Assembly: GCA_001779315.1 (NCBI GenBank)
Contig: MFJU01000006.1
Coordinates: forward strand, 2,612-66,611
Length of the DNA stretch: 64,000 nt
Direction of reading: 5' to 3'
DNA from: Candidatus Gottesmanbacteria bacterium RIFCSPLOWO2_01_FULL_42_22
GTDB taxonomy: Bacteria > Patescibacteriota > Microgenomatia > 2-02-FULL-39-11
A model generated the notes under the pieces. That model ran no database searches. It saw only the letters and a program-made list of their open reading frames with translations, and was not told the origin of the DNA. Shown in pieces: positions 4,095 through 62,743 of the stretch. The translations under genes were made by a program, and so were the position numbers. How positions within the stretch are numbered: the first letter of the stretch is position 1; the number at the start of each line of letters is the position of its first letter.

Positions 4095-4108
4095 GATAAA
4101 CCTGAATT

Positions 4109-5400: not shown

Positions 5401-5408
5401 TGTTAATT

Positions 5409-5952: not shown

Positions 5953-5956
5953 TTAA

Positions 5957-6094: not shown

Positions 6095-6139
6095 TTGGCA
6101 AATGATACCACAATTTATAGAAAATATCACTTCATCCGT

Positions 6140-6168: not shown

Positions 6169-6179
6169 TGTGGAAATCT

Positions 6180-7521: not shown

Positions 7522-7537
7522 AGATTTAGTTAACAAC

Positions 7538-7716
7538 TTATCCACTAAAAAACAAAATTTATCAACATAAGAATACACATTAATAAAAGGCTGTTATACA
7601 CAGGAAAAATTAACTATTTGGAGCTTGTTGACTGTTAGGGCTAAATTAACTACACTTATCAACACTTTCTAATACTACTAATACTATAAAAGATATAAGG
7701 ACTTAATAAAAAGAGC
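7538..7716. promoter_or_regulatory. Candidate oriC: cluster of DnaA-box-like 9-mers plus an AT-rich unwinding region in the dnaA-dnaN intergenic spacer
   Basis: ttatccact (7538-7546), ttatcaaca (7559-7567), ttatacaca (7594-7602), ttatcaaca (7657-7665), followed by the very AT-rich tract ctaatactactaatactataaaagatataagg. Confidence 0.6.
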
Positions 7717-37723: not shown

Positions 37724-37741
37724 AAAAGTTAAGGAATTACG

Positions 37742-38776: not shown

Positions 38777-39919
38777 ATGAAAGACATAAATATCCTGGCC
38801 GGGGCAACCTCAAGTTTCGGTGAATTATGGGGGGTATCTCCGAGAAAATTGGTAAGCGATGTCACCGCTGAAGCTTTGAAGGAGTCTGGGATTAAACGGC
38901 ATGAAATCGAGGCAATATTCGTGGGCAATATGCTTTCTTCCTCATTAGGCAGCCAGGACCATTTGGGAGCTTTTTTCAGCGAAGAATTAGGATTAGATGT
39001 GCCGGCGGTCAAAATTGAAGCAGCTTGCGCTTCAGGCGGCATGGCTGTCCATACGGCCTGTTTGGCTGTTTTATCCGGTCAATATGAAACAGTTTTAGTA
39101 GTCGGTGTCGAGAAGATGACTGATCATAAGCCTGAGGAGGTCGCCTCAGCCCTGATGGCAGCCGGGACGGACGGGGAAAGGGAAGCCGGAGCCACCTTTC
39201 CGACACTTTACGCTTTAATAGCCCGGGCTCATATGGCAAAATACGCTACCACAGAATTACAAATGGCGGCAGTTTCGGTAAAAAATCATTTTCATGCCTC
39301 TTTAAATTCCCACGCCCAATTCAAAAACCCGATAACTGAAGAGATGGTTTTGAAAAGTCCGGTGGTAGCTTCTCCCTTAAAAATCCTGGATTGCTCTCCG
39401 ATTACTGACGGTGCAGCCTCACTTATATTATCCCGCAGGAAATCCGGCGGCAAAAACATAGCCATTACGGCTTCGGAAGCAGCCACGGATTCATTAGGCT
39501 TGGCCCAGCGGGAAAGTTTAACTTCACTGAAAGCAGCTGCCGAGGCAGCCAAAAAAGCCTACCGCTCAGCCGGTATTTTGCCGAATGATATCAATGTAGC
39601 AGAAGTGCATGACTGTTTTTCCATAGCTGAAATCATAGCCATGGAAGATCTGAGTTTTTTCACCAAAGGCACGGCTGCCAAAAATATAGCTAGTGGGATG
39701 ACCAGACTGGGAGGCAAGGGAATCATAGTTAATACCTCAGGCGGGCTCAAAGCAGCAGGACACCCTGTCGGCGCCACAGGAGTGAAACAGGTCGTAGAAA
39801 TTTTACAGCAGCTTAAAGGCATATCCGGCGCCAAACAAGTCTCAGGGGCAAAGATAGGTTTGACTCATAATGTCGGGGGCAGCGGAGCAACCGCGGTAGT
39901 CCATATTTTAAAAAAATAA
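38777..39919 (+). CDS. Acetyl-CoA C-acetyltransferase (thiolase), archaeal type
   Basis: Thiolase-like fold with active-site Cys region EAACASGG; 380 aa; adjacent to HMGCS and DUF35 as in archaeal thiolase/HMGCS complexes. Confidence 0.7.
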   Translation: MKDINILAGATSSFGELWGVSPRKLVSDVTAEALKESGIKRHEIEAIFVGNMLSSSLGSQDHLGAFFSEELGLDVPAVKIEAACASGGMAVHTACLAVLSGQYETVLVVGVEKMTDHKPEEVASALMAAGTDGEREAGATFPTLYALIARAHMAKYATTELQMAAVSVKNHFHASLNSHAQFKNPITEEMVLKSPVVASPLKILDCSPITDGAASLILSRRKSGGKNIAITASEAATDSLGLAQRESLTSLKAAAEAAKKAYRSAGILPNDINVAEVHDCFSIAEIIAMEDLSFFTKGTAAKNIASGMTRLGGKGIIVNTSGGLKAAGHPVGATGVKQVVEILQQLKGISGAKQVSGAKIGLTHNVGGSGATAVVHILKK

Positions 39920-39923
39920 ATAT

Positions 39924-40223
39924 ATGATTTCACCGGTAAAAATCTGGCGCAATCAGAAAAAAATCAGGGAAGTATTGAATCAAAGCGGTAAAATTATCAG
40001 TTTTACCCGTGTATTTATGCCGCCGGCCGGTTTTGAAAATCAGGCACCTTATGCAGTTGTTTTAGTCAAACTGGCCTCGGGCCGAAATTATATCGCCCAA
40101 CTGGTTGACTTTGAAGAAAAACATTTGAAAATAGGGCAAAAAGTAATAACGGTTTTAAGAAGGACCAGAAGCCCGAGCGAGGAAGGCATTATACCCTACG
40201 GCGTTAAATTCAAGCCGCTATGA
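39924..40223 (+). CDS. DUF35 OB-fold scaffold protein of the thiolase/HMGCS complex
   Basis: 99 aa; position immediately after thiolase/HMGCS and OB-fold-like sequence (AVVLVKLASGRNYIAQLVDFEEKHLKIGQKV). Confidence 0.5.
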   Translation: MISPVKIWRNQKKIREVLNQSGKIISFTRVFMPPAGFENQAPYAVVLVKLASGRNYIAQLVDFEEKHLKIGQKVITVLRRTRSPSEEGIIPYGVKFKPL

Positions 40224-41179
40224 ATTTCTCCACTGTATCAGTCCCCGGTAAAATTTTTCTTATGGGCGAGCATAGTGTTGTTTACGGAAAGCCGGCTATT
40301 CTGTCGGCAATCAACAGGCGGGTTTACGTGCGTGTTGCCATAGCGGATAATGGCAAGCATGAAATTGAGTCCGGGGATAACCAGTTTATCGGCAATGTTC
40401 TTGAACTGACAGCTCTACATCTTAAAATAAAAACTTTGCCTTATTTAAAGGTGATAATTACTTCCCAGCTGAAAAAGGGATACCATTTGGGATCATCGGC
40501 GGCTGTAGCGGCAGCAACCATTGCCGCTGTCTTATATCACCTTAAAAAAATCTGGAATCCGGAACTGGTCAATCAATTAGCCTATTCGGCGGAAAAAGCC
40601 AAACATGGTTTACCATCAGGCGCCGATAATACTGCTTGTGTCTTCGGAGGATTAATCTGGTACCGCAATGAACTGTCATATCTTAAAAGTATCTGGCAGC
40701 TGTCACTCAAATCCGAACTTTTAAATAATTTTTATCTGGTTGATAGCGGAAAAGGGGAAGAATCAACCAAGGACATGGTTGCCATGGTCAAAAAAAGGTA
40801 TTTAGATAACAAGCAATTGTACCAGAGGCTGTTTATATCAAATGAAGAAGCGGTCAGAAATATTGCTGAAAGTTTAAAAAACGGCAATGAAAACGCTCTC
40901 ATTCAGGCCATAAGAAAAGGAAGCTTTACCTTAAAAAAAATGGGAGTTGTCAGCCCCATGGCAGCAGATTTAATTGATACTTTCGAATCTTCAGGAGGCG
41001 CGGCTAAAATCCTGGGAGGAGGGGGCCGGAAAAAATCAGTCGGATATCTCCTTATATATCATAAAGATAAAAAAATCTTAAAGGACATTTCCGCCTCATG
41101 CGGGTTTTCTATTGAAGCAGTTAGGTTAGGTGAAGAAGGTATGAGGCTGGAGAAAGGGACGGGTGATACGAATCAATAA
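40220..41179 (+). CDS. mvk: Mevalonate kinase (GHMP family)
   Basis: PGKIFLMGEHSVVYGKPAI and GYHLGSSAAVAAA GHMP motifs; 319 aa. Confidence 0.7.
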   Translation: MNFSTVSVPGKIFLMGEHSVVYGKPAILSAINRRVYVRVAIADNGKHEIESGDNQFIGNVLELTALHLKIKTLPYLKVIITSQLKKGYHLGSSAAVAAATIAAVLYHLKKIWNPELVNQLAYSAEKAKHGLPSGADNTACVFGGLIWYRNELSYLKSIWQLSLKSELLNNFYLVDSGKGEESTKDMVAMVKKRYLDNKQLYQRLFISNEEAVRNIAESLKNGNENALIQAIRKGSFTLKKMGVVSPMAADLIDTFESSGGAAKILGGGGRKKSVGYLLIYHKDKKILKDISASCGFSIEAVRLGEEGMRLEKGTGDTNQ

Positions 41180-42137
41180 TCAAAGCGTCACTGCCACCCT
41201 ACCTGGAAAACTGATGCTGATAGGTGAACATGCTGCTGTCTACGGTTTTCCGTGTTTGGCAGCTGCTGTTGATAAAAAATTGACAGTTAAATTAAACAAA
41301 AGGACTGATGGCAATATCATTATACGGAGTGATTCTTTTAAAGAAACGCTTCAATCTGATTGGCAAAAAATAACCGGGAAAATAGAACCGGCAGGGCAAT
41401 ATTTAACAGCAGCCTTAAGAACAGTTTCAGCGTTAATATCTGACAAAACCGGAATGGACATGGAAATTAAATCTGGTTTTTCAGGCCGTTACGGTTTAGG
41501 TTCTTCGGCGGCGGTGACGGCAGGCACGATTGCCGGCGTAGCTGCCCTTTTCGGTTTGAATCTGTCAAAAGAAGAGTTATTTAAGCTGGCTTACCGGTCT
41601 ATTTTAACTGTGGCGGAAGACGCCTCAGGCTATGATGCGGCTTCCGTCATTTTTGGCGGAGTGATTTATTATAAAAAAGGGGATAGCAAGCCGGAAAAAA
41701 TAGATGCAAACCCAAATCTTCTAGTCTGTTATTCCGGCAGTAAAGCTGATACGGTAGAAATGGTCAGAATAGTTGCCGGAAAAATGAACAGTCACAGAAA
41801 GGCTGTTTTAAAGATCTTTGAATCAACGGCTGAACTCGTCGAACAGGCACGCCAATCTCTTATCAGTCATCAATATGATATTTTCGGAAAATTAATGAAT
41901 TTCTCCCAGGATTATCTGGAAGATTTGGGTGTGGCAACTCCCAAGCTTAATGAGCTGATTTTAAAAGCCAGAAAAGCCGGAGCCTTGGGAGCCAAAATTT
42001 CCGGTGCCGGAGGCGGGGATTGCCTGATTGCTTTGGTAGATGGCAGAAATAGCCCGAAAGTAGTCCAAGCCTTGATTGAGGCCGGAGGAGAAATCGTTGA
42101 TACTGCTATAACCTCAAAAGGAGTTTCTATAAGTTGA
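41163..42137 (+). CDS. GHMP kinase, putative phosphomevalonate kinase
   Basis: PGKLMLIGEHAAVYG and GLGSSAAVTAG motifs; second GHMP kinase in the mevalonate cluster; 324 aa. Confidence 0.55.
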   Translation: MIRINNQSVTATLPGKLMLIGEHAAVYGFPCLAAAVDKKLTVKLNKRTDGNIIIRSDSFKETLQSDWQKITGKIEPAGQYLTAALRTVSALISDKTGMDMEIKSGFSGRYGLGSSAAVTAGTIAGVAALFGLNLSKEELFKLAYRSILTVAEDASGYDAASVIFGGVIYYKKGDSKPEKIDANPNLLVCYSGSKADTVEMVRIVAGKMNSHRKAVLKIFESTAELVEQARQSLISHQYDIFGKLMNFSQDYLEDLGVATPKLNELILKARKAGALGAKISGAGGGDCLIALVDGRNSPKVVQALIEAGGEIVDTAITSKGVSIS

Positions 42138-42138
42138 T

Positions 42139-43116
42139 ATGAAAAAAACAGCTGTCGCCTGTTCCAATTTAGCCCTGATAAAATATTGGGGTAAAGTTGA
42201 TTTTGAGAAGCGGTTGCCTACCAATGACAGTCTGTCAGTTAATTTGGATAATTTGACAACCACAACTACAGTCGATTTTTCTGCCAGTTATAAAAAAGAT
42301 TTGCTTGAAATAGACGGTATTAGGGCTGCCGGTAGAAAATTTGATCGTGTCAGGCAGCATCTTGACCGGATAAGAAGTTTGGCCGGCAGACAATTATCAG
42401 CCCGGGTTGTCTCCAGGAATAATTTCCCGTCAGCGACCGGTTTATCATCGTCAGCTTCAGGATTTGCCGCTTTAACAAAAGCTGCGGTAGCCGCCCTTGA
42501 ATTAAAATTAACTGAAAAAGAAATGTCGATTATGGCCAGACAGGCTTCCGGTTCTGCCTGCCGCTCAATACCAACGGGTTTTAGCCATTGGCACAAAGGC
42601 CGCAACAGTCAATCTTCATATGCCGAATCGATTTTCCCTGCTTCATATTGGCAGTTAACGGATTTAGTGGCAATTATAAGCCATCAAATAAAATCAGTGC
42701 CGACAAGCATCGCCCAGCAATCAGCATTTACAAGCCCTTTTTTCCGGGAGAGATTGAAAAGAATACCGGATAAAATTAAAGCTCTTTCAATTTATATTAA
42801 AAAAAGGGATTTCCAGTCATTTGGCGAGCTCGTTGAAGCCGAAAGCTTGGAACTTCACTCCATAATGCTAACTTCAAGCCCTTCATATATATATATATAT
42901 CCCGAAACTCTTGAATTGATGCATCAGGTCAAAAGCTGGCGTAAAAAAGGTTTAGATGTTTACTTCAGCCTGAACACAGGACATAATCTCCATGTACTTT
43001 GTCTAAATAAGGACAGGGAAAAAATTTTGGCTTTATTAAAAAAAGCCGGTATCAAAGACATCATCATTAATGGCCCGGGCCAGGGAACTAGACTGACAGA
43101 TAAGCATTTATTCTAA
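42139..43116 (+). CDS. mvaD: Diphosphomevalonate decarboxylase
   Basis: NLALIKYWGK motif and GHMP-like fold; 325 aa. Contains a (TA)8 microsatellite at 42888-42903. Confidence 0.7.
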   Translation: MKKTAVACSNLALIKYWGKVDFEKRLPTNDSLSVNLDNLTTTTTVDFSASYKKDLLEIDGIRAAGRKFDRVRQHLDRIRSLAGRQLSARVVSRNNFPSATGLSSSASGFAALTKAAVAALELKLTEKEMSIMARQASGSACRSIPTGFSHWHKGRNSQSSYAESIFPASYWQLTDLVAIISHQIKSVPTSIAQQSAFTSPFFRERLKRIPDKIKALSIYIKKRDFQSFGELVEAESLELHSIMLTSSPSYIYIYPETLELMHQVKSWRKKGLDVYFSLNTGHNLHVLCLNKDREKILALLKKAGIKDIIINGPGQGTRLTDKHLF

Positions 43117-43117
43117 T

Positions 43118-43804
43118 ATGGAGAACAATTTAAAACATATAGCCCTGATCATGGACGGCAACCGCCGCTGGGCGAAAAAACACAATCTTCCTACCCTCGA
43201 AGGCCACAGGCTTGGAGAGGAACGGATTGAACCGCTTGTCGATTGCGCCATTGAGATGGGAATTTCTTATCTGACATTTTGGGCTTTTTCAACGGAAAAC
43301 TGGCATCGGGAAAAAAGGGAAGTCAAATTTTTAATGAAACTCTACCGTACTCTACTGGACCGCAAAGCCGACAGCTTTCATAAAAAAAACGTCAGAATCA
43401 ACTGTATCGGCAACCTGAGTTTATTTTCATCTGATCTTCAGGCAAAAACTAAGCGCTGGATGGAACAAACTAAAAATAATAAATTAATTACCGTCAACCT
43501 GGCATTAAATTACGGTGGCAAAGATGAAATAATCAGGGCAGTCAATAAATGGCAAAAGGAAAATAAGAAGAATCAAGAATTGACAAAGGATATTCTAGCT
43601 GATTATCTTGATTCTGCCGGACAACCTGATCCTGATTTAATAATCAGAACCGGAGGAGAAAAGAGACTGTCCGGATTTTTGATGTGGCAATCGGAATACA
43701 GCGAGTTGTATTTTACCAGGACCTATTGGCCGGATTTTACCCCGCTAAAATTCCGACTGGCCATCGCAGAATATAAAAGAAGGCAAAGACGATTCGGAAA
43801 ATAA
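43118..43804 (+). CDS. uppS: Undecaprenyl diphosphate synthase (cis-isoprenyl transferase)
   Basis: HIALIMDGNRRWAKKH and RTGGEKRLSGFLMWQSEYSELYF motifs; 228 aa. Confidence 0.85.
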   Translation: MENNLKHIALIMDGNRRWAKKHNLPTLEGHRLGEERIEPLVDCAIEMGISYLTFWAFSTENWHREKREVKFLMKLYRTLLDRKADSFHKKNVRINCIGNLSLFSSDLQAKTKRWMEQTKNNKLITVNLALNYGGKDEIIRAVNKWQKENKKNQELTKDILADYLDSAGQPDPDLIIRTGGEKRLSGFLMWQSEYSELYFTRTYWPDFTPLKFRLAIAEYKRRQRRFGK

Positions 43805-52332: not shown

Positions 52333-52779
52333 ATGAAATGCCCATTTTGCAATAACAATGATACGGAAGTAGTCGAAACCCGGGATAATGAAGATATGCA
52401 GATAATCAGGCGCCGTCGTGAATGCCCTAAATGTGCTAAGAGATTTACCACATATGAAAGAATTGAACGGGTACCTTTAATTGTAATGAAGAAAGACGGC
52501 CGAAAAGAACAATTTGACAGGGATAAACTTAAAAACGGCATTTTAAAATCATGTGAAAAAACAGTAGTTGGCATTTCGGAAATTGATTCAATAGCTGAAG
52601 AAGTTGAAAAAGAATTACGGAATCAGGATGGAGTTGAAATCGACAGTAAAAAAATAGGACAGCTGGTAGCCCAAAAATTAAAAAAAATTGATAAGATAGC
52701 CTATATCAGATTTGCCTCGGTTTTCCGCAGATTCGTCGATGTTGAGGATTTCGAAAAAGAGTTGCAGAAACTGTTATAA
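52333..52779 (+). CDS. nrdR: Transcriptional repressor NrdR
   Basis: MKCPFCNNNDTEVVETR...CPKC zinc ribbon and ATP-cone; 148 aa. Confidence 0.85.
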   Translation: MKCPFCNNNDTEVVETRDNEDMQIIRRRRECPKCAKRFTTYERIERVPLIVMKKDGRKEQFDRDKLKNGILKSCEKTVVGISEIDSIAEEVEKELRNQDGVEIDSKKIGQLVAQKLKKIDKIAYIRFASVFRRFVDVEDFEKELQKLL

Positions 52780-52818
52780 AAATTTAGCCCCGAAGCTATC
52801 GGGGGATGAAAGGGTGCT

Positions 52819-55173
52819 TTGAACATGAAATTAACCGGCATTCGCGAACAGGTTTTTCTGGATAGATATTCTCTCAAAGATGAGAAAGGAAAGCCGGTCG
52901 AAAAAACACCCGAGGCTATGTGGAAAAGAGTGGCGGCAGGTGTAGCCGCGGTTGAAAAAAAGGCAGACAGAAAGTATTGGGAGAAAAAATTCAGCGAAGC
53001 CATGAATGACTTTAAACTGGTACCGGGAGGCCGCATTTTATCAGGAGCAGGCACCGGCTACAAGGTCACTTTTTACAACTGTTTTGTCATACCTTCGCCA
53101 AAAGATTCCCGTGACGGTATTTTGGATACATTGAAACAAATGGTGGAGATAATGGCACGGGGCGGCGGAGTCGGCATCAATCTCTCTTCTCTTAGGCCCA
53201 GGGGAGCCCGTGTCAGAAAAGTCAACGGATTTTCTTCCGGTCCCTGTAATTGGGCGGAACTGTTTTCGGTGGCTACCAAAGACATTATCCAGCAGGGCGG
53301 CACCCGCAGGGGAGCTTTAATGCTCATGTTGTGGGACTGGCATCCTGATATCGAGGAATTCATAACCGTCAAACGGGATCTTTCACGAATCAACGGAGCT
53401 AATCTGTCTGTTTGCGTTTCCGATAAATTTATGGAAGCGGTTAAAAAAGACGCTGACTGGGATCTGGTTTTTCCCGATATCGCAGACCGTGAATACGATA
53501 CGAAATGGGACGGCTATCTGGATAATTGGCTAAAGTTAGGTAAAAAAGTCAAAGTCCATAAAACCGTCAAGGCCAGAAAAATCTGGGACCTGATTTCTGA
53601 AGCAGCCTGGGCTTCGGCTGAACCGGGATTGGTTTTCATGGAACGCTATAACAAGTGGAACAACAACTGGTATTTCAACAACATAAATTGTGTAAATCCA
53701 TGCGGAGAGGAAGGATTACCGGCCTGGGGGGTCTGCAATCTGACATCGATCAATCTGTCGGCTTTAGTGCGGGACGGCAAGATCGATTATCAGGAATTAG
53801 CCGAAATTGCCCAGGTGGGCGTTAGATTCCAGGATGACATTATCGATGCGGATTCCTACGTTTTTCCCCAAATTGAAGAAACGCAAAAAAACGGTGAAAG
53901 GCGGATCGGATTGGGTACGATGGGGTTGGGTGATGCTCTCATCAAGATGAAAATCCGCTACGGATCCCCTCTGTCGATCAGGGTCATCGATAAGATTTAT
54001 TCGACCATCAGAAATGCTGCCTACGAAGCATCAACTGAGATAGCTAAAGAAAAAGGTGCTTTTCCCAAGTTTGAGGCCAAAAAATATTTAAAAGGCTATT
54101 TTATCAAACAATTGCCTGAAGCCATTAAGGCTAAGATTAAAAAATGGGGCATCCGTAACTCTGTTTTGTTACAGCAAGCCCCAACAGGCTCAACTTCCCT
54201 TCTGGCCGGTGTCACCTCAGGGATAGAACCCGTTTACGAGTTTTCCTTCATCAGGCGTGACCGCTTGGGTGAGCACCGCCTGTTTCACCCCCTTTTTGAT
54301 CAATGGAAAAAGGAACATCCCAATGATCCCATCCCTGATTATTTCGTCTCGGCCAATGATCTGATTCCGGACGATCACGTCAAGGTGCAGGCAGCCATCC
54401 AAAAATACGTTGATGCTTCCATTTCCAAAACGGTCAATGCACCCAATAGCCACACAGTTGAAGATGTCCGGAAATTGTACCGGATGGCTTATGAATTAGG
54501 CTGCAAGGGCATAACTTACATGAGGGATGGCAGCCGCCCCGGAGTGTTGGAAAGAGTTACGGATAAAAAAGCGGAAACCTCTGTCACTGCCCCCGACAGC
54601 AATTCTATAATCGGGAACGGCAAACATACGCCGGAAATTACCCCCAGGCCGATGGTGGTCAAAGGAGCTACCTACCAGATTGATACACCGGTCGGGGCTG
54701 CTTTTGTGACCATTAATACCGATATGGCTAATGAACCATTGGAGATATTTATCAATGTCGGTAAAGCCGGTTCAGATGTGACGGCTATGGCTGAAGCTGT
54801 CGGCCGCTTGGCTTCGCTCACATTAAGAATACAGTCAAGTGTACCTGCCTCGGAAAGAGCCAAACAAATATTTAACCAGCTGATCGGTATCGGGGGTTCG
54901 AAATCATTGGGATTTGGGGATAAAAGGGTCAGATCTTTGCCGGATGCGGTGGCCAAAATTCTGGCCATGCATTTTGATTATAAAATTAAAAACGGCAACG
55001 GCCTAACTCATAAAGAAGTAATTGCAGAACAGCAGCCTTTGGCGGTATTAACACAGCAAGCTTTGCCTGTCGAAAAATCAGAATTTGATTTATGTCCTTC
55101 CTGCGGAGAAGCTGCTCTGGCCTATGAAGAAGGCTGTAAAAAATGCTACAGCTGTGGCTATTCCGAATGTTGA
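52819..55173 (+). CDS. nrdJ: Ribonucleotide reductase, class II (adenosylcobalamin-dependent), with C-terminal Zn ribbon
   Basis: Active-site VNPCGEEGLPAWGVCNLTSINL (NPCGE is class II; class I has NLCxE); C-terminus CPSCGEAALAYEEGCKKCYSCG; 784 aa; flanked by nrdR and a cobalamin adenosyltransferase. Confidence 0.75.
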   Translation: MNMKLTGIREQVFLDRYSLKDEKGKPVEKTPEAMWKRVAAGVAAVEKKADRKYWEKKFSEAMNDFKLVPGGRILSGAGTGYKVTFYNCFVIPSPKDSRDGILDTLKQMVEIMARGGGVGINLSSLRPRGARVRKVNGFSSGPCNWAELFSVATKDIIQQGGTRRGALMLMLWDWHPDIEEFITVKRDLSRINGANLSVCVSDKFMEAVKKDADWDLVFPDIADREYDTKWDGYLDNWLKLGKKVKVHKTVKARKIWDLISEAAWASAEPGLVFMERYNKWNNNWYFNNINCVNPCGEEGLPAWGVCNLTSINLSALVRDGKIDYQELAEIAQVGVRFQDDIIDADSYVFPQIEETQKNGERRIGLGTMGLGDALIKMKIRYGSPLSIRVIDKIYSTIRNAAYEASTEIAKEKGAFPKFEAKKYLKGYFIKQLPEAIKAKIKKWGIRNSVLLQQAPTGSTSLLAGVTSGIEPVYEFSFIRRDRLGEHRLFHPLFDQWKKEHPNDPIPDYFVSANDLIPDDHVKVQAAIQKYVDASISKTVNAPNSHTVEDVRKLYRMAYELGCKGITYMRDGSRPGVLERVTDKKAETSVTAPDSNSIIGNGKHTPEITPRPMVVKGATYQIDTPVGAAFVTINTDMANEPLEIFINVGKAGSDVTAMAEAVGRLASLTLRIQSSVPASERAKQIFNQLIGIGGSKSLGFGDKRVRSLPDAVAKILAMHFDYKIKNGNGLTHKEVIAEQQPLAVLTQQALPVEKSEFDLCPSCGEAALAYEEGCKKCYSCGYSEC

Positions 55174-55177
55174 TAAC

Positions 55178-55717
55178 ATGCCTTCAAAAGTCAAAGTCTA
55201 CACCAGAACAGGTGATGCCGGTAAAACATCTCTATACGGCGGAAAAAGAGTCCCTAAAAGCTATTTGAGAGTGGAGGTATACGGAACTATCGATGAACTT
55301 AATTCCGTCATCGGCATTTTATTGTCGGATATGGGCAAAGAAGATAATCTGGCTAATTTTTTTAAGGAAGTCCAATCGGATCTGTTTTCTATAGGAGCCA
55401 ATTTAGCCGGAGATAAAACCGATTTAAATTTATTAACCGGTAGAACTGCCGAAATGGAGAAATTAATTGACGTGATGGATAAAGAGTTGCCTGAACTTAA
55501 AAATTTTATTCTGCCCGGAGGGACACATTTGGCCTCTTTGGCTCATCTGGCCCGTTCCGTCTGCCGCCGGGCTGAAAGAAAAGTCGTTTCATTAACTAAA
55601 ACGGACAGCCGCCTGTTTGCCTACCTGAACAGATTGTCCGATCTTCTTTTTATAACTGCACGCTATTTAAATTGGAAAAATGGTCTGAAAGATACGCTTT
55701 GGCTTAAAAAAAAGTAA
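55178..55717 (+). CDS. PduO-type ATP:cob(I)alamin adenosyltransferase
   Basis: MPSKVKVYTRTGDAGKTSLYGGKRVPKSYLRVEVYGTIDELNS is the PduO/MMAB N-terminal signature. Start set at ATG 55178; the track ORF start at 55085 overlaps nrdJ. Confidence 0.75.
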   Translation: MPSKVKVYTRTGDAGKTSLYGGKRVPKSYLRVEVYGTIDELNSVIGILLSDMGKEDNLANFFKEVQSDLFSIGANLAGDKTDLNLLTGRTAEMEKLIDVMDKELPELKNFILPGGTHLASLAHLARSVCRRAERKVVSLTKTDSRLFAYLNRLSDLLFITARYLNWKNGLKDTLWLKKK

Positions 55718-55724
55718 TAACTTG

Positions 55725-55873
55725 GGAATTTAAGAGGAATTCCGTGTAATTCGGAAACTGTGCCGCAACGGTAAAGTCCGGAACTCTTTTCCAAAGATCA
55801 TCATCCCGAGCAGGAGAATACGGTCAAATTTAGGGGTTAGTATTCCTCTCGGGTTTAACGGGAGGATTTTTTT
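55725..55873 (+). ncRNA. Candidate cobalamin riboswitch with terminator / RBS-sequestering expression platform
   Basis: GAGGAATTCCGTGTAATTCGGAAACTGTGCCGCAACGGTAAAG resembles the Cbl-riboswitch core (E. coli btuB: AGGGAATCCAGTGCGAATCTGGAGCTGACGCGCAGCGGTAAGG). A partial B12-box-like CCCGAGCAGGAGAATACGG follows. The 3' hairpin CCTCTCGGG-TTTAA-CGGGAGG (55845-55865) is followed by ATTTTTTT and contains the GGAGGA Shine-Dalgarno for the ATG at 55874. Confidence 0.5.
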
Positions 55874-55940
55874 ATGAAAGAGTTGCCAAATGTATTTGGC
55901 TTACTCTTTCAAATAGTGAGGAGCGAAGCGACGTACTATT

Positions 55941-58574
55941 ATGGTTGAGCTGGCCATGTCGGTCATGACGGCGCCCGGAATTGCGGGCAGTCCTAATAGT
56001 GTGCCCGACTGTAATTCATATAGCTGTTCCTTAGCCATTAACGCAATTATGGGCATGGAAACAGGACAAGCGGTCAAAGCAGTTAAATCTGATGTTGTTT
56101 CGCAACTCATCGAACATGAATTAAACCGGCCGATAAGCATCGTCGATTTTGGAATCAAAAAAAAAGCCATTACATTCCCTAACGGTCAGGTAATAGAAAA
56201 AGACACACTTTATAATGAAGAATTCGGCAAAACCATACAGGGCGTAACTAATCCGCTAGAAGGGGCAGGTCAAGTCTGGTATAAGACTGACCGTCTTTCC
56301 GACAAAATTGTGGCTGCTGCCGATAATACCTGGCATATTACCGTCAGCCAAGGCAATAGTGAAACTCACCGTTTGGCTGTCTTTCATAAAAAAGAAGATC
56401 AGATCAGGGAATATTTCATTTCAATAGAGGCTTCAGCGGAAACTGTTTTCAGGATAGCCTCGCTATTTCCACCGGAAAGGCAGATAGAGGAATCATCGGA
56501 TACTTTTTTGCCGAATCTATTCAATGGAATCGAAGCCTCATATTCAGGCTGGGAAAAGTCGGAGAGGCGGGAGTTTTTAAAGGACCTGAAAGAAGAATTT
56601 AATTTGGGTGATCAGAAACTTGAAGAAAGAAAAGAGAAAATTAGCCAATTAATCAACAGATTTGTCAGGGAAACATTATCGTCCAACGAAACGGTTGAGG
56701 CAATCGGAGTGATCGGGCAGGCTATAGCGCAATTGGCCGGAGAAGCGAAGTCAATACTCAGACAAATCCCCTACGCTTCTTTACCCCCCCTTACCCGGTT
56801 ACCGCTCGACACCAAACAGACCGAACAATCAGCAGAAAGAAGGTTGGTGCGGGAAAAGGAAAATCCGGGCTTAACCGGCATTATTCTGAATGAGGCCCCG
56901 ATAGTTAAACCGATTTTCCAGAAAATAGCTGCTTTTGAAAATGATGAAATACCCAAGACAGAACCAGTTATAAGTAAAATTGAATTGATGACAGTTAATG
57001 AAGAAACTTCCGAAGGAGAGGAATATTCAGCTGAGGATTCATTTATTGCCGTTATGATTTTGCAGCATATAATGTCGGCGTCTGTTGCTGAAAGTCAAAC
57101 AGAAATTTCAAATGCAGAAATAAGCGATCACTTTGAAGTAATCATTCCTCTCATTCCATCCCTGATCGGTCTGTTGGAAGAAGTGGAAAAAATATCTGAT
57201 GTAAATATTAATACAGATGTAACCGCGGAAAAATCAATAATTGAGTTTCCGGAAAAATCTATAGCCGTATCAGAAGAATCATTACTCGCTGGTTTAATAC
57301 TTCAGCTATTTACTACAGAAGATAATTTTGAACCTGTAACTTCTGAGGATAATAAACAATTATATTTATCTGCTAAACCGGAGAACTGGGAAGCTATGCT
57401 TGATCCGGAAGACACACTAACTGAAAAAAAGTTGGAAATTGTCTCTTTACCCGATGAATTTACGGATAATGCTTATATGGTTAGCCCGGAAGTAGAAGGA
57501 GATTATCTTTCAGATGGTGAAATTTCAGAAATGTCTGTTGATAACATTGAGGTGCCCTTAATTGCCGTTTGGATAATTCATCAGATCGTCTCTATTCCTG
57601 AAGCTGGTTTAAAAGGTAATGCTGCTGAATTATCCGACATTCCACAAGACATCGACTCTAATGGGAATCATCCGGATGATGTCAAGCAGGAAATTGTTTT
57701 ACCTTTAATTCATTCTCTGACAGGCCTGCTGGAAATAACCCATTCAATTCCTGATGCCGTAAATCAGGTATTGGAAGAAATATCTAAAAGGTTCTCAGTC
57801 GGCGAAGTGCTTTTTGCAACCACCGAAGAGCAGGATTTTGTCGAACAAGTTGCCGTTCCCGCAGCAATTATCTTTTTAGGAATAATAGAGAAATTTGTTG
57901 AAATAAATAATGGAAAAACCGTCCAAAATTCAGATTTAGAAACAGTAGAAAAGATCGAAAATCAAAAAGAAAAAATATCAGCTCAATCTGAAAAATTAAT
58001 TGAGGAATTAATATTATTTACAGTGATGAAGCAATTTTTAACTTTTGAAAGTCAGGACTATATGAATTTAAATAAGGAGCATAAAATTAATGAATCCGGT
58101 GAAGAAAAAGTAACTAAAAAAAAAGAAACTGTTTCGAAAGAGATTTCTTTGATTGTGCCTGCTCTGGTTTCTTTTCTGGATAAAATTACCAGTAAAAAAT
58201 TTGAGAATGAATCAGTTGAAGAAATGTCTATTGAGCAGGAAATTGCAGATATTACTGAGAAGAAAGTTAATGATAAATTATTACTGGGAATAATCCGATT
58301 AATTTCAATGGTACTCAGGATTGAAAAAAGAATTGAAATAGTTAAACCTTTCGCACAGCTGATTCAGGAAAAATTACCCAAAGAAATAGAATCACTTCAA
58401 CGCTTAATATTTTTAAAATTAGCCTTAAATTTATTAATTTTAGAGAGGAAAGATCTGCTTACCAGGCAGCAAGGGCATGGTAATGGTAAGCAGAAAAAAA
58501 AGCAGGTTAAATTACCACTGTATGCCTTGATATTTAGTTTTGAGACCCATCTTGAACCTTTGCCAGTTGTGTGA
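55941..58574 (+). CDS. Large acidic hypothetical protein (877 aa) with three ~120-aa internal repeats; first gene after the candidate Cbl riboswitch
   Basis: Repeated segments IIPLIPSLIGLLEEVEKISDV / IVLPLIHSLTGLLEITHSIPDAV / LIVPALVSFLDKITSKKFENES, each preceded by an amphipathic hydrophobic helix (AVMILQHIMSASVAESQ / IAVWIIHQIVSIPEAG / LIEELILFTVMKQFL). No signal peptide or known domain recognised. The exact start is uncertain: a 24-aa uORF at 55874-55948 overlaps the ATG at 55941 (ATGGTTGA). Confidence 0.5.
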   Translation: MVELAMSVMTAPGIAGSPNSVPDCNSYSCSLAINAIMGMETGQAVKAVKSDVVSQLIEHELNRPISIVDFGIKKKAITFPNGQVIEKDTLYNEEFGKTIQGVTNPLEGAGQVWYKTDRLSDKIVAAADNTWHITVSQGNSETHRLAVFHKKEDQIREYFISIEASAETVFRIASLFPPERQIEESSDTFLPNLFNGIEASYSGWEKSERREFLKDLKEEFNLGDQKLEERKEKISQLINRFVRETLSSNETVEAIGVIGQAIAQLAGEAKSILRQIPYASLPPLTRLPLDTKQTEQSAERRLVREKENPGLTGIILNEAPIVKPIFQKIAAFENDEIPKTEPVISKIELMTVNEETSEGEEYSAEDSFIAVMILQHIMSASVAESQTEISNAEISDHFEVIIPLIPSLIGLLEEVEKISDVNINTDVTAEKSIIEFPEKSIAVSEESLLAGLILQLFTTEDNFEPVTSEDNKQLYLSAKPENWEAMLDPEDTLTEKKLEIVSLPDEFTDNAYMVSPEVEGDYLSDGEISEMSVDNIEVPLIAVWIIHQIVSIPEAGLKGNAAELSDIPQDIDSNGNHPDDVKQEIVLPLIHSLTGLLEITHSIPDAVNQVLEEISKRFSVGEVLFATTEEQDFVEQVAVPAAIIFLGIIEKFVEINNGKTVQNSDLETVEKIENQKEKISAQSEKLIEELILFTVMKQFLTFESQDYMNLNKEHKINESGEEKVTKKKETVSKEISLIVPALVSFLDKITSKKFENESVEEMSIEQEIADITEKKVNDKLLLGIIRLISMVLRIEKRIEIVKPFAQLIQEKLPKEIESLQRLIFLKLALNLLILERKDLLTRQQGHGNGKQKKKQVKLPLYALIFSFETHLEPLPVV

Positions 58575-58600: not shown

Positions 58601-59071
58601 ATGCCAGTTTCAAAACGAAAAAACAACCGGAATCTTATTATTCTGGTAATACTTTTACTCTTAGGCTCGGTTTTTTTCGGACAGACTGTTTTTCTGAAAG
58701 AAGATAAAAAAACAGAGGAAAAAGAGACGATTAGCCGCAGCGAAAATACAGTCGATGAACTGATTCAGGAGAGAGAAGCGACAGGAAATAAAATAACGGT
58801 AAATTTCGGCGCAGGCAAAACTTTTGTTAAAGATTTGCAGGCAGCCACACCCTACGAAGCTTTGAAAACTATGGCATCCCAAGAGGGATGGGAAATAAAG
58901 ACAAAGGAATACAAATACGGCTTAATGGTTGAAGGGGTAGGCAATTTGATTAATTCAGATAAGGGTTACTGGACGTATAAAACAAACGGCCAACCTGGTA
59001 AAATAGCTTCTGACAGATATACTCTTAAAAAAGGTGAAACCGTTGAATGGGAGTATGTCCAAGTCGATTAA
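58601..59071 (+). CDS. DUF4430 (transcobalamin-like beta-domain) secreted/membrane-anchored protein, putative cobalamin-binding protein
   Basis: N-terminal signal anchor (LIILVILLLLGSVFFG). The C-terminus YGLMVEGVGNLINSDKGYWTYKTNGQPGKIASDRYTLKKGETVEWEY follows the DUF4430 pattern (G-x-V-x-x-I-x-G...g-YW-x-Y-x-V-N-G...G-x-x-x-Y-x-L-K-x-GD-x-I-x-W-x-Y), which I recall is classified with the C-terminal domain of transcobalamin/intrinsic factor. Confidence 0.5.
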   Translation: MPVSKRKNNRNLIILVILLLLGSVFFGQTVFLKEDKKTEEKETISRSENTVDELIQEREATGNKITVNFGAGKTFVKDLQAATPYEALKTMASQEGWEIKTKEYKYGLMVEGVGNLINSDKGYWTYKTNGQPGKIASDRYTLKKGETVEWEYVQVD

Positions 59072-59076
59072 AAAAA

Positions 59077-59619
59077 ATGTATTCAAAAATTTCCGCGGCC
59101 TTTGGGCTTGTGGCTGCCGGTATTCTTTTCAGAACTGTTTTCCATATCGGCGATAATATTGAAACAATTACCTCCGGCACTTTAGTAGCCGCCGCATATC
59201 TCGGACCGTTTTGGGCGCTGGCTGTTCCTTTGACTTCAATGGCTGTTTCCGACCTGATTTTGGGTAACAGCCTGATTTTTATATTTACCTGGACTGCTTA
59301 TATGATTATTGGTGCAACTGCCTTTCTTTTTTTCAGGAAAAAGAAAAAAGACCGCTTGATTATTCCTTCTATACTGGCAGCCGGAGGAGCTTCCATATTT
59401 TTCTATCTGTGGACAAATTTCGGAGTCTGGTTTTTAGACTTTTACGGCATGTATCCTAAAACTTTGCCTGGATTGGCCGAAGCCTATATCCTGGGCTTGC
59501 CGTTTCTGAAAATGAATCTGTTAGGAAATCTTATTTTTGTGCCTTTGTTTTTCTTTATTGCGCAGATTGTGAGAGCAGAAGCAAAAGAAGAAAATAAAAA
59601 TAAAATTTTTTCCGGGTAA
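59077..59619 (+). CDS. ECF-transporter S-component-like small polytopic membrane protein (CbrT-like candidate)
   Basis: About 180 aa with roughly 6 TM helices and short loops, the size and topology of ECF substrate-capture (S) components; directly downstream of the DUF4430 gene in the riboswitch-led operon. Start set at ATG 59077. Confidence 0.4.
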   Translation: MYSKISAAFGLVAAGILFRTVFHIGDNIETITSGTLVAAAYLGPFWALAVPLTSMAVSDLILGNSLIFIFTWTAYMIIGATAFLFFRKKKKDRLIIPSILAAGGASIFFYLWTNFGVWFLDFYGMYPKTLPGLAEAYILGLPFLKMNLLGNLIFVPLFFFIAQIVRAEAKEENKNKIFSG

Positions 59620-59626
59620 GCCAATC

Positions 59627-60085
59627 ATGCCTGCCGTAAATAACCAGCATCATAATGGCCAGACTTCCTCAACCGGGAATAAGCCAAAAAAAACTCCACC
59701 GGCGGTAAGTATTACTGCCATAGGAGGTAAAGAAGCTGAAAAAGTCACTCAGGAAGCGAGTCTAAAAATAGAGGAAATTTCCTCGGAGACAGTTTTGGCT
59801 CCTGAAGTGGAAACGGCCGGTGTTACTAAAATCGGGGATACGATCGAATTTCCGCCTGATATTACTGATTTAACCGGCGGTCAAAGTGTAAGTACTTTAC
59901 CTTCACAGACGTCATCCCAAACAGCCGTACCTATGCCCATTAGTGACGACTTGATATATTCCGGAAGTCAGAAATCAATTACCAATACCATCAAATGGCT
60001 GGCAGAGTGGTGCATCAGAAAACTTAAAATGGCCCATCTGGTCCTGAAAAATATTCACGGCAAAATTATCCGGGTCAAAATATAA
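59627..60085 (+). CDS. Hypothetical protein (152 aa), S/T-rich, last gene of the putative B12 operon
   Basis: Clean ORF 8 nt after the preceding stop; no motif. Confidence 0.3.
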   Translation: MPAVNNQHHNGQTSSTGNKPKKTPPAVSITAIGGKEAEKVTQEASLKIEEISSETVLAPEVETAGVTKIGDTIEFPPDITDLTGGQSVSTLPSQTSSQTAVPMPISDDLIYSGSQKSITNTIKWLAEWCIRKLKMAHLVLKNIHGKIIRVKI

Positions 60086-60100: not shown

Positions 60101-62449
60101 ATGGATATGTATGAGCCAACATTATTATACGATTCTCTCCTGAATCTTGGTTTCACTTTTACTATTCTGATTTTAGTATTATTCGGGCTCGCTCTTTTTA
60201 CCTATTTCATTTTTCTATGGTGGAAGTACCGAAACCGCGAGAAACAGAGTTTGGAATTTGTGCTTTTGCAGATATGCGTACCAAAGGATAATGAGGTAAA
60301 AATTGATGCTGCAGAACAATTTTATTCCTCACTTTCCTCCCTGTCCCACGGCGGCTTTCTCTCTTTCATGAAAGATAAGGACCATATTTCTTTTGAAATC
60401 GTCGGCCGTCCCGGAGATATCCGCTTTTATGTCTCCGTCCATCACCATTTGCGGGATCTTATCGAAAAACAGATTTACGGTATGTACCCGGGAGCGGAGA
60501 TTAAAGAAGTGGATGAATATAATATTTTTGATGAAAAGGGCAAAGTGGCTTTTGCTTCATTTATTTTAAAAGGCTCGGATTATTTGCCGATGAAGACATT
60601 TAAAGATCTGCCGGTTGATCCGATGTCAGCCATCACCTCAAATTTAGGCAAAATGCAGGCCGGTGAGGGAGCGGCAATTCAAATTTTGGTGACTCCTGCC
60701 GCAGGCAAGTGGAAGAGTTCCGGAAAAAGTTATCTTTCAGGAGTGAAAAAAAACGAGGCTAACCCGGAAAAAGCGCATTATAACGTCGACCATAAAATCC
60801 TGGAAACCATAGAAAACAAATTAGCCAAACCGGGTTTCTTAACGACGATCAGAGTAGTTGTTTCCTCAACCACGTTGGAATCCGCCAAGATGCATCTTCA
60901 TAATATCGAATCGGTTTTTGCTCAATTTTCCTCAGACCAAAACCATTTAGGGGGAGCCAAACTCATGTTCAAAAGTTCATTCGTCATCGATTTCATTTAC
61001 CGTTATTTTCCCATCCTTAATTGGCCTTATAAACAGTACAGTGTTTTAACCAGCGAGGAATTGGCGACCCTTTTCCATTTTCCCAATAAAAGTGTGGAAA
61101 CCCCCCACATTCAATGGGTAACTTCCAAAAGGGCACCGGCACCGCCGGAAATTCCCACCTCCGGGCTTTATCTGGGTAAAAGCACTTACCGGGGCATTTC
61201 CAGACCGATCCATATGGATTTGGATGACAGACGCCGCCATGTATATATTATCGGTAAAACGGGGGTAGGCAAATCGGTCCTTTTGAAAGACATGATCCTT
61301 CAGGATATTAAAGAGGGCAAAGGTGTAGCGGCTATCGATCCCCACGGGGATTTAGTTGAGGGAATTTTACCGATGATACCGCCTGAAAGGGCTGAAGATG
61401 TTATCTATTTTGACCCTTCAGATACCGACAGGCCGATGGGGTTGAATATGCTTGAAGCCAAGACTGAAGAGCAAAAACACTATATCGTCTCATCAATCAT
61501 CGGCTTGATGTATAAACTTTACGACCCCCAGAAAACCGGTATTATCGGACCCAGATTTGAACATGCCATCAGAAATGCCATGCTGACAATTATGGTTGAA
61601 CCGGGCGCTTCTTTCGTCGAGGTGGTCAGAGTTTTAACCGATTCAGCTTACGTACAGGAACTGCTGCCGAAAGTCCAGGATCCGATTGTCAGAAGGTATT
61701 GGACAGACCAGATCGCCCAGACATCCGATTTCCATAAATCTGAAGTATTGGATTATATCGTTTCCAAATTCGGCCGTTTCGTCACCAACAAACTGATGCG
61801 TAATATCATCGGACAAAGTAAAAGCGCCTTTGATTTCCGCAAAGTTATGGATGAAGGTAAGATTCTTCTGGTTAATCTGGCCAAAGGAAAATTAGGCGAG
61901 GAGAATTCATCCTTTTTGGGATTGATAATGGTGCCGAAGATATTGGTTGCGGCCATGAGCCGGGTGGATACACCGGAAGAGCAGCGCCGGGATTTTTTCC
62001 TTTATGTTGACGAATTTCAGAATTTCGCCACACCCGATTTCGCCCAGATTCTGTCCGAAGCCAGGAAATTCCGCCTTAATCTTTGCGTGGCCAACCAGTT
62101 TATCGGCCAGATGGAAGAAGAAGTAAAGAATGCTGTTTTCGGCAATGTCGGCACACTGGTGACCTTCCGGGTGGGAGTGACTGATGCCAATTATCTCCAG
62201 CATTGGTTTACACCTGTTTTCAATGAGAACGACCTGATCAACGTCGACGTCTATAATGCCTATATCAATACCATTATCAGCAATAAACCGGTACCGCCTT
62301 TCTCGGTTGATTTGCGCAAAGATATGGCTGAGTTTAAAAAGCTGGAAAACAAGCAGGTAGCCAAAGCCATTCTGCAACTTTCGCGTCTCAAATACGGCCG
62401 ACCCCGGGAACTGGTCGAAGCCGAAATCTCCCAACGGGCTAAACTCTAA
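60101..62449 (+). CDS. VirD4/TraG-like type IV coupling protein (HerA/FtsK-superfamily ATPase with N-terminal TM anchor)
   Basis: N-terminal TM helices (ILILVLFGLALFTYFIFLWW); Walker A YIIGKTGVGKSVLLKDM; Walker B DFFLYVDEFQNFA; 782 aa. Confidence 0.55.
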   Translation: MDMYEPTLLYDSLLNLGFTFTILILVLFGLALFTYFIFLWWKYRNREKQSLEFVLLQICVPKDNEVKIDAAEQFYSSLSSLSHGGFLSFMKDKDHISFEIVGRPGDIRFYVSVHHHLRDLIEKQIYGMYPGAEIKEVDEYNIFDEKGKVAFASFILKGSDYLPMKTFKDLPVDPMSAITSNLGKMQAGEGAAIQILVTPAAGKWKSSGKSYLSGVKKNEANPEKAHYNVDHKILETIENKLAKPGFLTTIRVVVSSTTLESAKMHLHNIESVFAQFSSDQNHLGGAKLMFKSSFVIDFIYRYFPILNWPYKQYSVLTSEELATLFHFPNKSVETPHIQWVTSKRAPAPPEIPTSGLYLGKSTYRGISRPIHMDLDDRRRHVYIIGKTGVGKSVLLKDMILQDIKEGKGVAAIDPHGDLVEGILPMIPPERAEDVIYFDPSDTDRPMGLNMLEAKTEEQKHYIVSSIIGLMYKLYDPQKTGIIGPRFEHAIRNAMLTIMVEPGASFVEVVRVLTDSAYVQELLPKVQDPIVRRYWTDQIAQTSDFHKSEVLDYIVSKFGRFVTNKLMRNIIGQSKSAFDFRKVMDEGKILLVNLAKGKLGEENSSFLGLIMVPKILVAAMSRVDTPEEQRRDFFLYVDEFQNFATPDFAQILSEARKFRLNLCVANQFIGQMEEEVKNAVFGNVGTLVTFRVGVTDANYLQHWFTPVFNENDLINVDVYNAYINTIISNKPVPPFSVDLRKDMAEFKKLENKQVAKAILQLSRLKYGRPRELVEAEISQRAKL

Positions 62450-62499: not shown

Positions 62500-62572
62500 G
62501 GGCCAGTAGCTCAGTGGTTAGAGCACTACTCTTATAAAGTAGGAGTCGATGGTTCGATCCCATCCTGGCCCA
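62500..62572 (+). tRNA. tRNA-Ile (anticodon UAU)
   Basis: Hand-folded cloverleaf: acceptor GGGCCAG/CTGGCCC, U8, D-arm GCTC-AGTGGTTA-GAGC, anticodon stem CTACT/AGTAG with loop CTTATAA (U33, anticodon TAT, A37), T-arm GATGG-TTCGATC-CCATC, discriminator A73; 3' CC partly encoded. Confidence 0.75.
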
Positions 62573-62743
62573 CCCTTCTTCGCTAAAGCTTCGCAGGGCA
62601 GGCGGAAATGGATTTTCCGGCGAATCGGGAATGGTGCTACTTCTTTGATTTTTTGGAAGCGAGATACATAAAAGCAATTATCACACCTATAAGTGATAAT
62701 CCAATTAAAAACAGAGCCCAAAAGATCGTAACATTATCAACAG

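Follow-up and report, generated by a model that had tools for sequence, protein, structure and literature searches.

Introduction

What might the first and largest gene behind a cobalamin riboswitch contribute to a bacterium that cannot make vitamin B12? The question was raised by a stretch of 64,000 nucleotides (nt) from Candidatus Gottesmanbacteria bacterium RIFCSPLOWO2_01_FULL_42_22 (contig MFJU01000006.1, positions 2,612 to 66,611; hereafter the window), in which an open reading frame (ORF) at 55941-58574 encodes a protein of 877 amino acids (aa). Bacteria of the candidate phyla radiation (CPR; Patescibacteria) cannot make B12, and orphan, fast-evolving proteins are very common in their genomes. 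An earlier note had described the product as an acidic protein of no recognisable family, without a signal peptide and with three internal repeats, and had suggested a ligand-binding scaffold, storage protein or chaperone for corrinoids. It proposed fold comparisons and homologue searches as checks, and it named a confident profile match to a known family, or a fusion of frame-shifted shorter genes, as grounds for rejection. The ORF proved to be a genuine protein-coding gene of an unannotated and rapidly diverging family from one Patescibacteria clade, and the gene is tied by conserved position to genes for corrinoid uptake and adenosylation. We infer that the protein assists the handling of scavenged corrinoid. 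Loci used for comparison carry L numbers and individual proteins P numbers; the features of the locus itself, between 52333 and 62449, are all on the plus strand.

A genuine gene of an unannotated family

The ORF call and its translation gave a reading frame that was intact from 55941 to 58574. The start at M1 was supported by the homologues, among which M-[IVL]-E-x-x-M was conserved (M-V-E-L-A-M in the window protein; MIEAVM, MLEMM, MIEAPM and MVEMAM in relatives). Eight complete, intact ORFs of 720-968 aa were found on independent contigs, with one more cut by a contig end and another by a scaffold gap. A reading of the gene as an annotation artefact, either a long ORF that arose by chance or several frame-shifted genes fused into one, can draw on the full-length AlphaFold2 (AF2) model, which was built from four near-identical sequences and is unstructured and unusable (predicted local distance difference test, pLDDT, 30.8), on the low complexity of the sequence and on the frameshift that splits the relative in L001. 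The comparative data refute this reading, which is left with next to no chance of being correct. Intact ORFs are present on at least nine further contigs, which come from different samples, the N-terminal domain (N-domain) is conserved and has a confident AF2 model, the C-terminal tail is also conserved, and the ratio of nonsynonymous to synonymous substitution rates (dN/dS) is below 1. A fusion of frame-shifted genes is contradicted specifically by the intact ORFs and by the dN/dS of 0.45 between the window and L001. An alternative genetic code was also considered and rejected, the ORFs being intact under table 11.

No Pfam or NCBIfam family was matched by the window protein at E<=0.01, nor was any Pfam family matched at E<=0.01 by any of eight family members. 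The confident match that would have placed the protein in a known family was looked for in Pfam, NCBIfam and the PDB and was not found; no profile, sequence or fold match assigns the family. The acidic character described earlier was seen in the window protein (isoelectric point, pI, 4.67; Glu 12.7%) and is not shared family-wide. The lack of a signal peptide was also borne out. By heuristic judgement, the N-terminus MVELAMSVMTAPGIAGSPNSVPDC has no basic n-region, no hydrophobic core and no signal peptide or lipobox, and 15-residue Kyte-Doolittle hydropathy did not exceed 1.39 within the first 35 aa. Judged in the same way, the window protein has no hydrophobic stretch of at least 18 uncharged residues and no transmembrane (TM) anchor. 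No signal peptide, lipobox or TM segment was seen in any family member.

The proposed search for homologues and their neighbourhoods returned few relatives, all from CPR, with a conserved riboswitch and uptake-gene context. A word-index search gave three proteins, of which one was identical, one was 92% identical and lay on a syntenic 57.5-kb contig, and one was divergent; the same type of search with the N-domain alignment returned only a fragment. An exhaustive HMMER scan of 1.84 billion representatives gave eight relatives in all, of which the six distant ones (666-968 aa) aligned to the profile over positions ~8-275 only. Two further members were reached through gene position, in the contexts of DUF6580 homologues. 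The ORF in L009 is interrupted by a scaffold gap and by nothing else, has a score of 70 bits with the N-domain profile and shares with the window protein the tail and the motifs 'A' and 'B' described below, and L010 (GCA_023487465.1) has an 828-aa ORF scoring 36.5 bits against that profile. Among roughly 15 billion proteins, the family accounts for about 11 sequences. No member was found among GTDB species representatives in two genome scans, and a scan of JGI metagenomes returned only contig AMFJ01021754, the known P0008 locus. The source names of the DUF6580 homologues were Patescibacteria, including Candidatus Gottesmanbacteria. The equivalent position in L011 is occupied by a 657-aa ORF for which no homology to the family could be detected; this points to extreme divergence or to a non-orthologous replacement. 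In the same locus (1932-8602), NrdD (with an intein), NrdG and a CobA-type adenosyltransferase replace NrdJ and PduO, and the riboswitch, a large ORF, DUF4430 and DUF6580 are kept.

Conserved position behind a cobalamin riboswitch

A cobalamin riboswitch aptamer of the adenosylcobalamin (AdoCbl)-II type (RF01689) was located at 55721-55795 by Rfam cmscan, with 45.5 bits (gathering score 36.5; E 9.5e-08). The 877-aa gene is the first gene behind it, as had been claimed, and this arrangement is conserved across the family. A match to the cobalamin clan (Rfam CL00101) precedes the large ORF in 10 of 12 loci, and the contigs of the remaining two hold no upstream DNA. Matches at or above the gathering score were obtained in the window, L007 (35 bits), L011 (37) and L010 (32.8); sub-threshold matches occupy the equivalent position in L005 (40.2), L006 (34.5), L002 (31.6), L009 (30.7) and L003 (24.7). 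The L002 riboswitch contains a 22-nt hairpin insert (TCATCCCGATGGAATCGGGATA) at ~9796-9817, equivalent to ~55772 in the window, where it is absent; the score of L002 falls below the gathering threshold because of this insert.

The usual gene order is (NrdR)-NrdJ-PduO, riboswitch, large ORF, DUF4430, DUF6580, a ~150-aa protein and a DUF8128/VirD4-like ATPase. Upstream in the window, at 52333-55717, Pfam and NCBIfam identified the B12 users and their companions: NrdR, the AdoCbl-dependent ribonucleotide reductase NrdJ and a PduO-type adenosyltransferase. Downstream, a DUF4430 protein with an N-terminal membrane anchor is encoded at 58601-59071 (Pfam PF14478, E 1.3e-08) and is presumed to be an extracellular corrinoid binder. 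In B12 binders of the transcobalamin type, DUF4430 forms the C-terminal domain (PMC4350170). It is followed at 59047-59619 by a polytopic membrane protein of DUF6580 (Pfam PF20221, E 1.4e-29), the presumed corrinoid transporter, which is weakly like the S-component of energy-coupling factor (ECF) transporters (ECF_trnsprt, E 0.0026). Sequence searches of the PDB gave no informative relative of either DUF6580 or DUF4430. Of the 10 loci with downstream sequence, 8 have DUF4430 immediately after the large gene, with DUF6580 next wherever the contig reaches that far, and a corrinoid adenosyltransferase (PduO or CobA) is located upstream of the large gene in the eight loci with enough upstream sequence.

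DUF6580 was paired with DUF4430 in all loci that hold DUF6580. In L013 the pair occurs without any large ORF, and in L012 a sub-threshold riboswitch-like match stands directly before it, again with no large ORF. We conclude that DUF4430-DUF6580 is the core uptake unit and that the large gene, in first place after the riboswitch, is a lineage-specific addition, because distant relatives carry the riboswitch, DUF4430 and DUF6580 without it.

The last two genes of the usual order encode, in the window, a 152-aa protein (59627-60085) and a DUF8128/VirD4-like membrane ATPase (60101-62449), which run in the same direction as the genes before them, with gaps of 7 and 15 nt. The VirD4-like ATPase was found downstream in the window, L002, L003, L006, L007, L009, L010 and L011, and is not an adjoining gene in L008. 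The ~150-aa protein has the C-terminal pattern WLAxWCxRxLKKAHLxLKxxHGKIxRVK, belongs to no Pfam family and precedes the highly conserved ATPase where the sequence was read (L003, L006, L007); an unannotated ORF of 119-160 aa takes its place in L009-L013. These two genes are probably an uncharacterised CPR module independent of the B12 genes, because the pair persists in L012 and L013 on the strand opposite to DUF4430-DUF6580. A search of the literature found nothing on DUF6580, on DUF8128 or on Patescibacteria with a cobalamin riboswitch. After the ATPase gene, at 62500-62574, the window has a tRNA-Ile with anticodon TAT (UAU) in place of the usual lysidine-modified CAT type, and the same tRNA follows the ATPase gene in L002. 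In L008 (AMFJ01021754, 2034-3038), the genes after the family member encode a Fic-domain protein (HPFLDGNGRIGR) and a PIN/antitoxin-like pair.

Leader region and predicted control

The expression platform was evaluated by structure prediction. An intrinsic terminator was predicted at 55844-55873, with a stem at 55844-55866 (8 pairs, 5 of them G-C; -13 kcal/mol, z = -3.4) and a T7 run at 55867-55873, and it was the top terminator-like site of the scanned region. An antiterminator was predicted at 55805-55853 (-16.9 kcal/mol), formed between the aptamer 3' segment CCCGAGCAGGAGAA (55805-55818) and the terminator 5' arm. The two structures are mutually exclusive because both use 55845-55853. This arrangement points to classical OFF-switch logic.

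A 24-codon upstream ORF (uORF; MKELPNVFGLLFQIVRSEATYYYG*) at 55874-55948 follows the terminator, and its TGA stop overlaps the main ATG (ATGGTTGA), as the earlier note had pointed out. GGGAGG, in the 3' arm of the terminator and 8 nt ahead of the uORF ATG, is from its sequence and spacing the predicted Shine-Dalgarno element of the uORF. The sole Shine-Dalgarno-like element of the main ATG is GAGGAG, 17 nt upstream. When cobalamin is bound, the terminator would form and would also bury GGGAGG. When B12 is scarce, transcription would read through, ribosomes would load on the uORF, and those leaving it would re-initiate at the overlapping main ATG. We infer that the 877-aa protein is made only when B12 is scarce.

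Termination-reinitiation from the uORF to the main gene, the translational coupling proposed earlier, is plausible, given the well-placed element at the uORF and the distant one at the main ATG, but the uORF occurs only in two near-identical contigs, the window and L002, where it is identical, and its peptide is without comparative support. The more distant loci have no uORF of this form. The ATG after the terminator T-run is the main start codon in L004 and L007, and in L003 and L005 the main ATG directly follows the AGGAGA of the aptamer. In the window and L002, the post-terminator ATG opens the uORF, and the conserved N-terminus starts 67 nt later in another frame. L006 has a mini-ORF of six codons (MAGLRF*) after the terminator T-run, at 3095-3115, and the AAGGAGG of its main gene is ~130 nt further on; the leader architecture therefore varies between lineages.

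Domain architecture and predicted fold

The protein consists of a conserved N-terminal peptide, an alpha/beta-plus-helical head, a variable spacer and a basic/aromatic C-terminal peptide. The N-terminal peptide (aa 1-35, with PDCxSYxxSLA) and the globular N-domain (aa ~25-275) are encoded at 55941-56774, the sole region to which every distant homologue aligned (profile positions 8-275). In the family alignment, the extreme N-terminus and a PDCxSYNxSLAF element were conserved, and over the ~250 aa of the N-domain the distant members were 25-39% identical to the window protein. With L009 and L010 included, the only invariant residues of the N-domain were G82, F95, S136, R144 and A254. An FGK[ST] motif was considered as a Walker-A element and rejected, since its spacing does not fit and L009 has lost it.

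The AF2 model of the N-domain, built from eight sequences, had a pLDDT of 81.4 and a predicted template-modelling score of 0.79. Residues 1-24 were disordered and were followed by two helices, a beta-beta-alpha-beta-beta-beta-alpha unit and a five-helix bundle. The fold comparison proposed in the earlier note gave no significant match for this model: Foldseek returned nothing below E 0.04 in the PDB (query template-modelling score <=0.21), and nothing significant was found among the viral folds of BFVD. A PDB sequence profile search with the N-domain also found nothing (best E 1.2). The commonest weak fold matches were longin, roadblock and PAS-like sandwiches, with Foldseek probabilities up to 0.57 and target-normalised template-modelling scores up to 0.47, all sub-threshold. 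The beta-beta-alpha-beta-beta-beta-alpha order of the predicted N-domain matches that of these domains.

The spacer of 400-650 aa is hypervariable, of low complexity and unalignable between clades, and it contains short hydrophobic, proline-containing motifs; one ~100-aa module is common to P0005-P0008 only. The C-terminal tail, encoded at 58479-58571, has a K/R-rich run followed by LPLYALIFSF, and the family pattern is [FL]Pxx[GA]phi-I-[YF]x[YF]. Exactly one occurrence of [GAR][ILVT]I[YF]x[YFWR], a pattern defined post hoc, lay within the last ~10-30 residues in all nine proteins scanned, and 4-9 K/R residues were present in the 30 aa ahead of the motif in the nine members. L009 and L010 end with the versions FSVIYLY and GVIYSF, respectively. 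A sortase, PEP-CTERM or other C-terminal sorting signal was considered for this tail and rejected, because such signals require a different order of motif, TM segment and basic tail.

Repeats and sequence variability

The earlier note had counted three repeats of ~120 aa, each with an amphipathic helix and a PL..SL.GLLE motif; this was upheld in part. In ungapped self-comparison, one 15-aa pair (aa 399 vs 584; BLOSUM62 score 52) exceeded the maximum of 46 obtained from 20 shuffles. A motif hidden Markov model (HMM) recovered the strict motif, termed 'A', in two copies, which the self-comparison had also paired: aa 399-415 (57135-57185; EVIIPLIPSLIGLLEEV) and aa 584-600 (57690-57740; EIVLPLIHSLTGLLEIT). 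It recovered a second motif, termed 'B', in three copies: aa 366-381 (57036-57083; DSFIAVMILQHIMSAS), aa 446-461 (57276-57323; ESLLAGLILQLFTTED) and aa 538-553 (57552-57599; VPLIAVWIIHQIVSIP). The proposed third 'A' copy, LIVPALVSFLDKIT, was not recovered; the corresponding site at 58146-58190 (SLIVPALVSFLDKIT) is degenerate and without statistical support. The spacing was irregular, with the 'A' copies 185 aa apart, and Tandem Repeats Finder returned no tandem repeat in the DNA (0 rows). The protein is accordingly not classed as a tandem-repeat protein, having only short, irregularly spaced motifs. The amphipathic helix was contradicted, the 'B' element being uniformly hydrophobic (mean hydrophobicity 0.66-0.75, hydrophobic moment 0.19-0.28).

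The repeat is nonetheless real, because the relative P0003 has three 'A' and four 'B' copies, that is, extra repeat units, and because one unit has been swapped between near-identical contigs. The 'A' and 'B' repeats are specific to the clade of the window. An unbiased search for a C-terminal motif common to the window protein and its distant homologues scored 150 against a null maximum of 149, which is not significant, and a family-wide 'A' motif, an impression gained from reading the sequences, was abandoned on this result.

Variability was also pronounced at the nucleotide level. Between the window and L001, the first ~1.15 kb of the gene was 93% identical and the DUF4430 gene 95.6%, and the last ~1.4 kb was essentially unalignable. 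The dN/dS for this pair was 0.45 over aa 76-413, compared with 0.14 for DUF4430. The window and L002 were compared over 11.7 kb. A segment of ~260 nt at 56925-57183, which holds one B-A repeat unit, could not be aligned with its counterpart in L002 (10970-11171) by blastn or by protein alignment, and its flanks were 99.4% and 100% identical. From these alignments, it looks like a cassette-like intragenic replacement. Furthermore, an A9 homopolymer at 56157-56165 (K73-K75) is A10 in L001 (~127-136), where it causes the frameshift that splits the gene. The difference may reflect slipped-strand phase variation or an assembly error.

Candidate functions

The preferred reading, which is held tentatively and at less than even confidence, is that of a putative cytoplasmic, tethered accessory or escort of corrinoid uptake. 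A cytoplasmic location is assigned because neither a signal peptide nor a TM segment was found. The C-terminal peptide, and possibly the hydrophobic motifs too, would dock the protein to a membrane partner, for which the DUF6580 transporter is the most economical candidate. The N-domain would receive either the corrinoid on entry or the corrinoid-using enzymes, and the corrinoid would be handed to the PduO adenosyltransferase and to NrdJ, whose genes lie just upstream. Several points weigh against an escort. Its docking partner is a guess. No profile or sequence match linked the window protein to B12-binding PF02310, Cobalamin_bind/DUF4430, BtuF-type proteins, CblC/CblD, PduO or CobA, and comparisons with Pfam, NCBIfam and the PDB, including Foldseek, revealed no resemblance to a protein or fold known from B12 binding or trafficking. 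The invariant N-domain residues appear to form no obvious ligand-coordinating set and do not look catalytic. In L007 and L008, the large gene is not followed by DUF4430 or DUF6580. Moreover, the variability, the swapped repeat unit and the homopolymer frameshift are more typical of exposed proteins that face a host or phage than of a cytoplasmic chaperone.

These last features are explained better by the main rival, in which the protein is an exported or surface-exposed, variable factor for corrinoid capture or host contact. It would leave the cell by non-classical secretion, with the N-terminal peptide or the basic C-terminal tail as the signal, and its gene would be a contingency locus under phage or host pressure. 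The C-terminal 1.4 kb that is almost unalignable between contigs with 93-96% identical flanks, the repeat unit replaced between contigs that are otherwise 99.4-100% identical, the varying repeat copy number among relatives, the A9/A10 frameshift and the higher dN/dS than that of DUF4430 are all consistent with such exposure, as are the conservation of the extreme N-terminus and the basic tail amid divergence and the VirD4-like membrane ATPase downstream in the eight loci named above. Delivery as a type IV secretion effector through this VirD4/TraD-like coupling ATPase would be one conceivable route, with the conserved basic/aromatic tail as a candidate for the positively charged C-terminal signal. 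However, no member has a signal peptide, lipobox or TM segment, and the 150-aa/ATPase pair is a separate unit, found on the opposite strand in L012 and L013, where its neighbourhood is the same without the large gene, and not adjoining the gene in L008. Intrinsically disordered cytoplasmic linkers also diverge fast, and the homopolymer difference may be an assembly error; on balance, exposure is considered unlikely. No more probable is a protein that is induced by B12 starvation but serves some other purpose than B12 handling, for instance an interaction hub, which would stand behind the riboswitch for timing only. Cobalamin riboswitches also control genes other than those of B12 transporters, such as metE and nrd isozymes; the weak fold resemblance is to longin, roadblock and PAS-type interaction domains; no ligand-binding signature is conserved; and L007 and L008 have the gene without adjoining DUF4430 or DUF6580. 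This reading is opposed by the position of the gene, directly ahead of DUF4430 in most loci and downstream of a corrinoid adenosyltransferase, and by L011, in which the reductase is B12-independent (NrdD/NrdG) and an unrelated large ORF still stands beside the uptake genes. The storage role proposed in the earlier note, here formulated as binding of cobalt, cations or corrinoid by an acidic repeat region, would suit the strongly acidic C-terminal region of the window protein (net charge -8.7 per 100 aa), but the pI of this region ranges from 4.3 to 10.7 across the family (9.7 in P0005, 10.7 in P0009 and near neutral in P0006 and P0008), and the repeats are clade-specific. Acidity is not conserved, and roles that depend on it are therefore disfavoured; storage is regarded as very improbable. 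The tethered escort remains the preferred reading. A broader formulation covers a new corrinoid-acquisition factor of episymbiotic CPR that is switched on by the riboswitch under B12 starvation and coupled to a leader ORF, and that acts either as a tethered cytoplasmic escort, a new-fold analogue of MMACHC, or as a leaderless, variable and possibly phase-variable host-contacting protein of 'B12 piracy'. This formulation, too, is held at less than even confidence.

Other features of the window

Three further features of the window were observed outside the locus. A ClpB-like ORF of 1344 aa at 14537-18571 has an unexplained insert of ~330 aa between its second AAA domain (aa 641-781) and D2-small (aa 1113-1193), in which no intein domain was reported at E<0.001. 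An ORF of 1358 aa at 21115-25191 has no Pfam match. A complete-looking mevalonate pathway cluster at 36575-43804 contains genes for HMG-CoA reductase, an HMG-CoA synthase-like protein, thiolase, two GHMP kinases and diphosphomevalonate decarboxylase, and is followed by undecaprenyl-diphosphate synthase.

Comparison with known systems and significance

The operon resembles the cobalamin-riboswitch corrinoid-uptake operons of Gram-positive-type bacteria, which pair a DUF4430 (transcobalamin-like) binder with a membrane protein resembling an ECF S-component, for example CbrT or BtuM. A riboswitch with a terminator platform, a DUF4430 binder and a small polytopic membrane protein are shared, and adjacent AdoCbl users with an adenosyltransferase are likewise common to both. 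It differs from them in its membrane protein, since DUF6580 is only weakly ECF_trnsprt-like and has no sequence relative in the PDB. We know of no described uptake operon of this kind that opens with a leaderless protein of 650-970 aa. The type of operon is thus known, and its first and largest gene represents an uncharacterised family without a known fold, a novel accessory component.

The closest functional parallel is with MMACHC (CblC) and MMADHC (CblD), for which the role is the same as the one proposed here, that of a cytoplasmic acceptor at the exit of a transporter that delivers cobalamin to enzymes. MMACHC works at the exporter of B12 from lysosomes. A further likeness is in outline, with a helical module after an alpha/beta core. 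The likeness is one of analogy and not of homology: comparison of the N-domain model with solved MMACHC and MMADHC chains (nitroreductase-like core and helical cap) gave no qualifying similarity. In its layout, the protein recalls tethers of the FtsZ and TonB type, which likewise have a globular head, a linker variable in length, sequence and charge, and a short conserved C-terminal peptide; there is no homology to the window protein. TonB, moreover, is anchored in the membrane at its N-terminus and acts in the periplasm, a compartment not expected in CPR cells.

The ribonucleotide reductase in the window is AdoCbl-dependent, and corrinoid acquisition therefore bears on the dependence of CPR bacteria on their hosts. 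The 877-aa gene is the largest of a B12-starvation operon in a reduced genome, and the riboswitch provides a functional handle, expression when B12 is scarce, of a kind not available for most orphan proteins of CPR bacteria. Should the protein prove to bind or escort corrinoids, it would represent a new fold in B12 trafficking; if it is exposed and variable, B12 acquisition would be a site of host or phage conflict.

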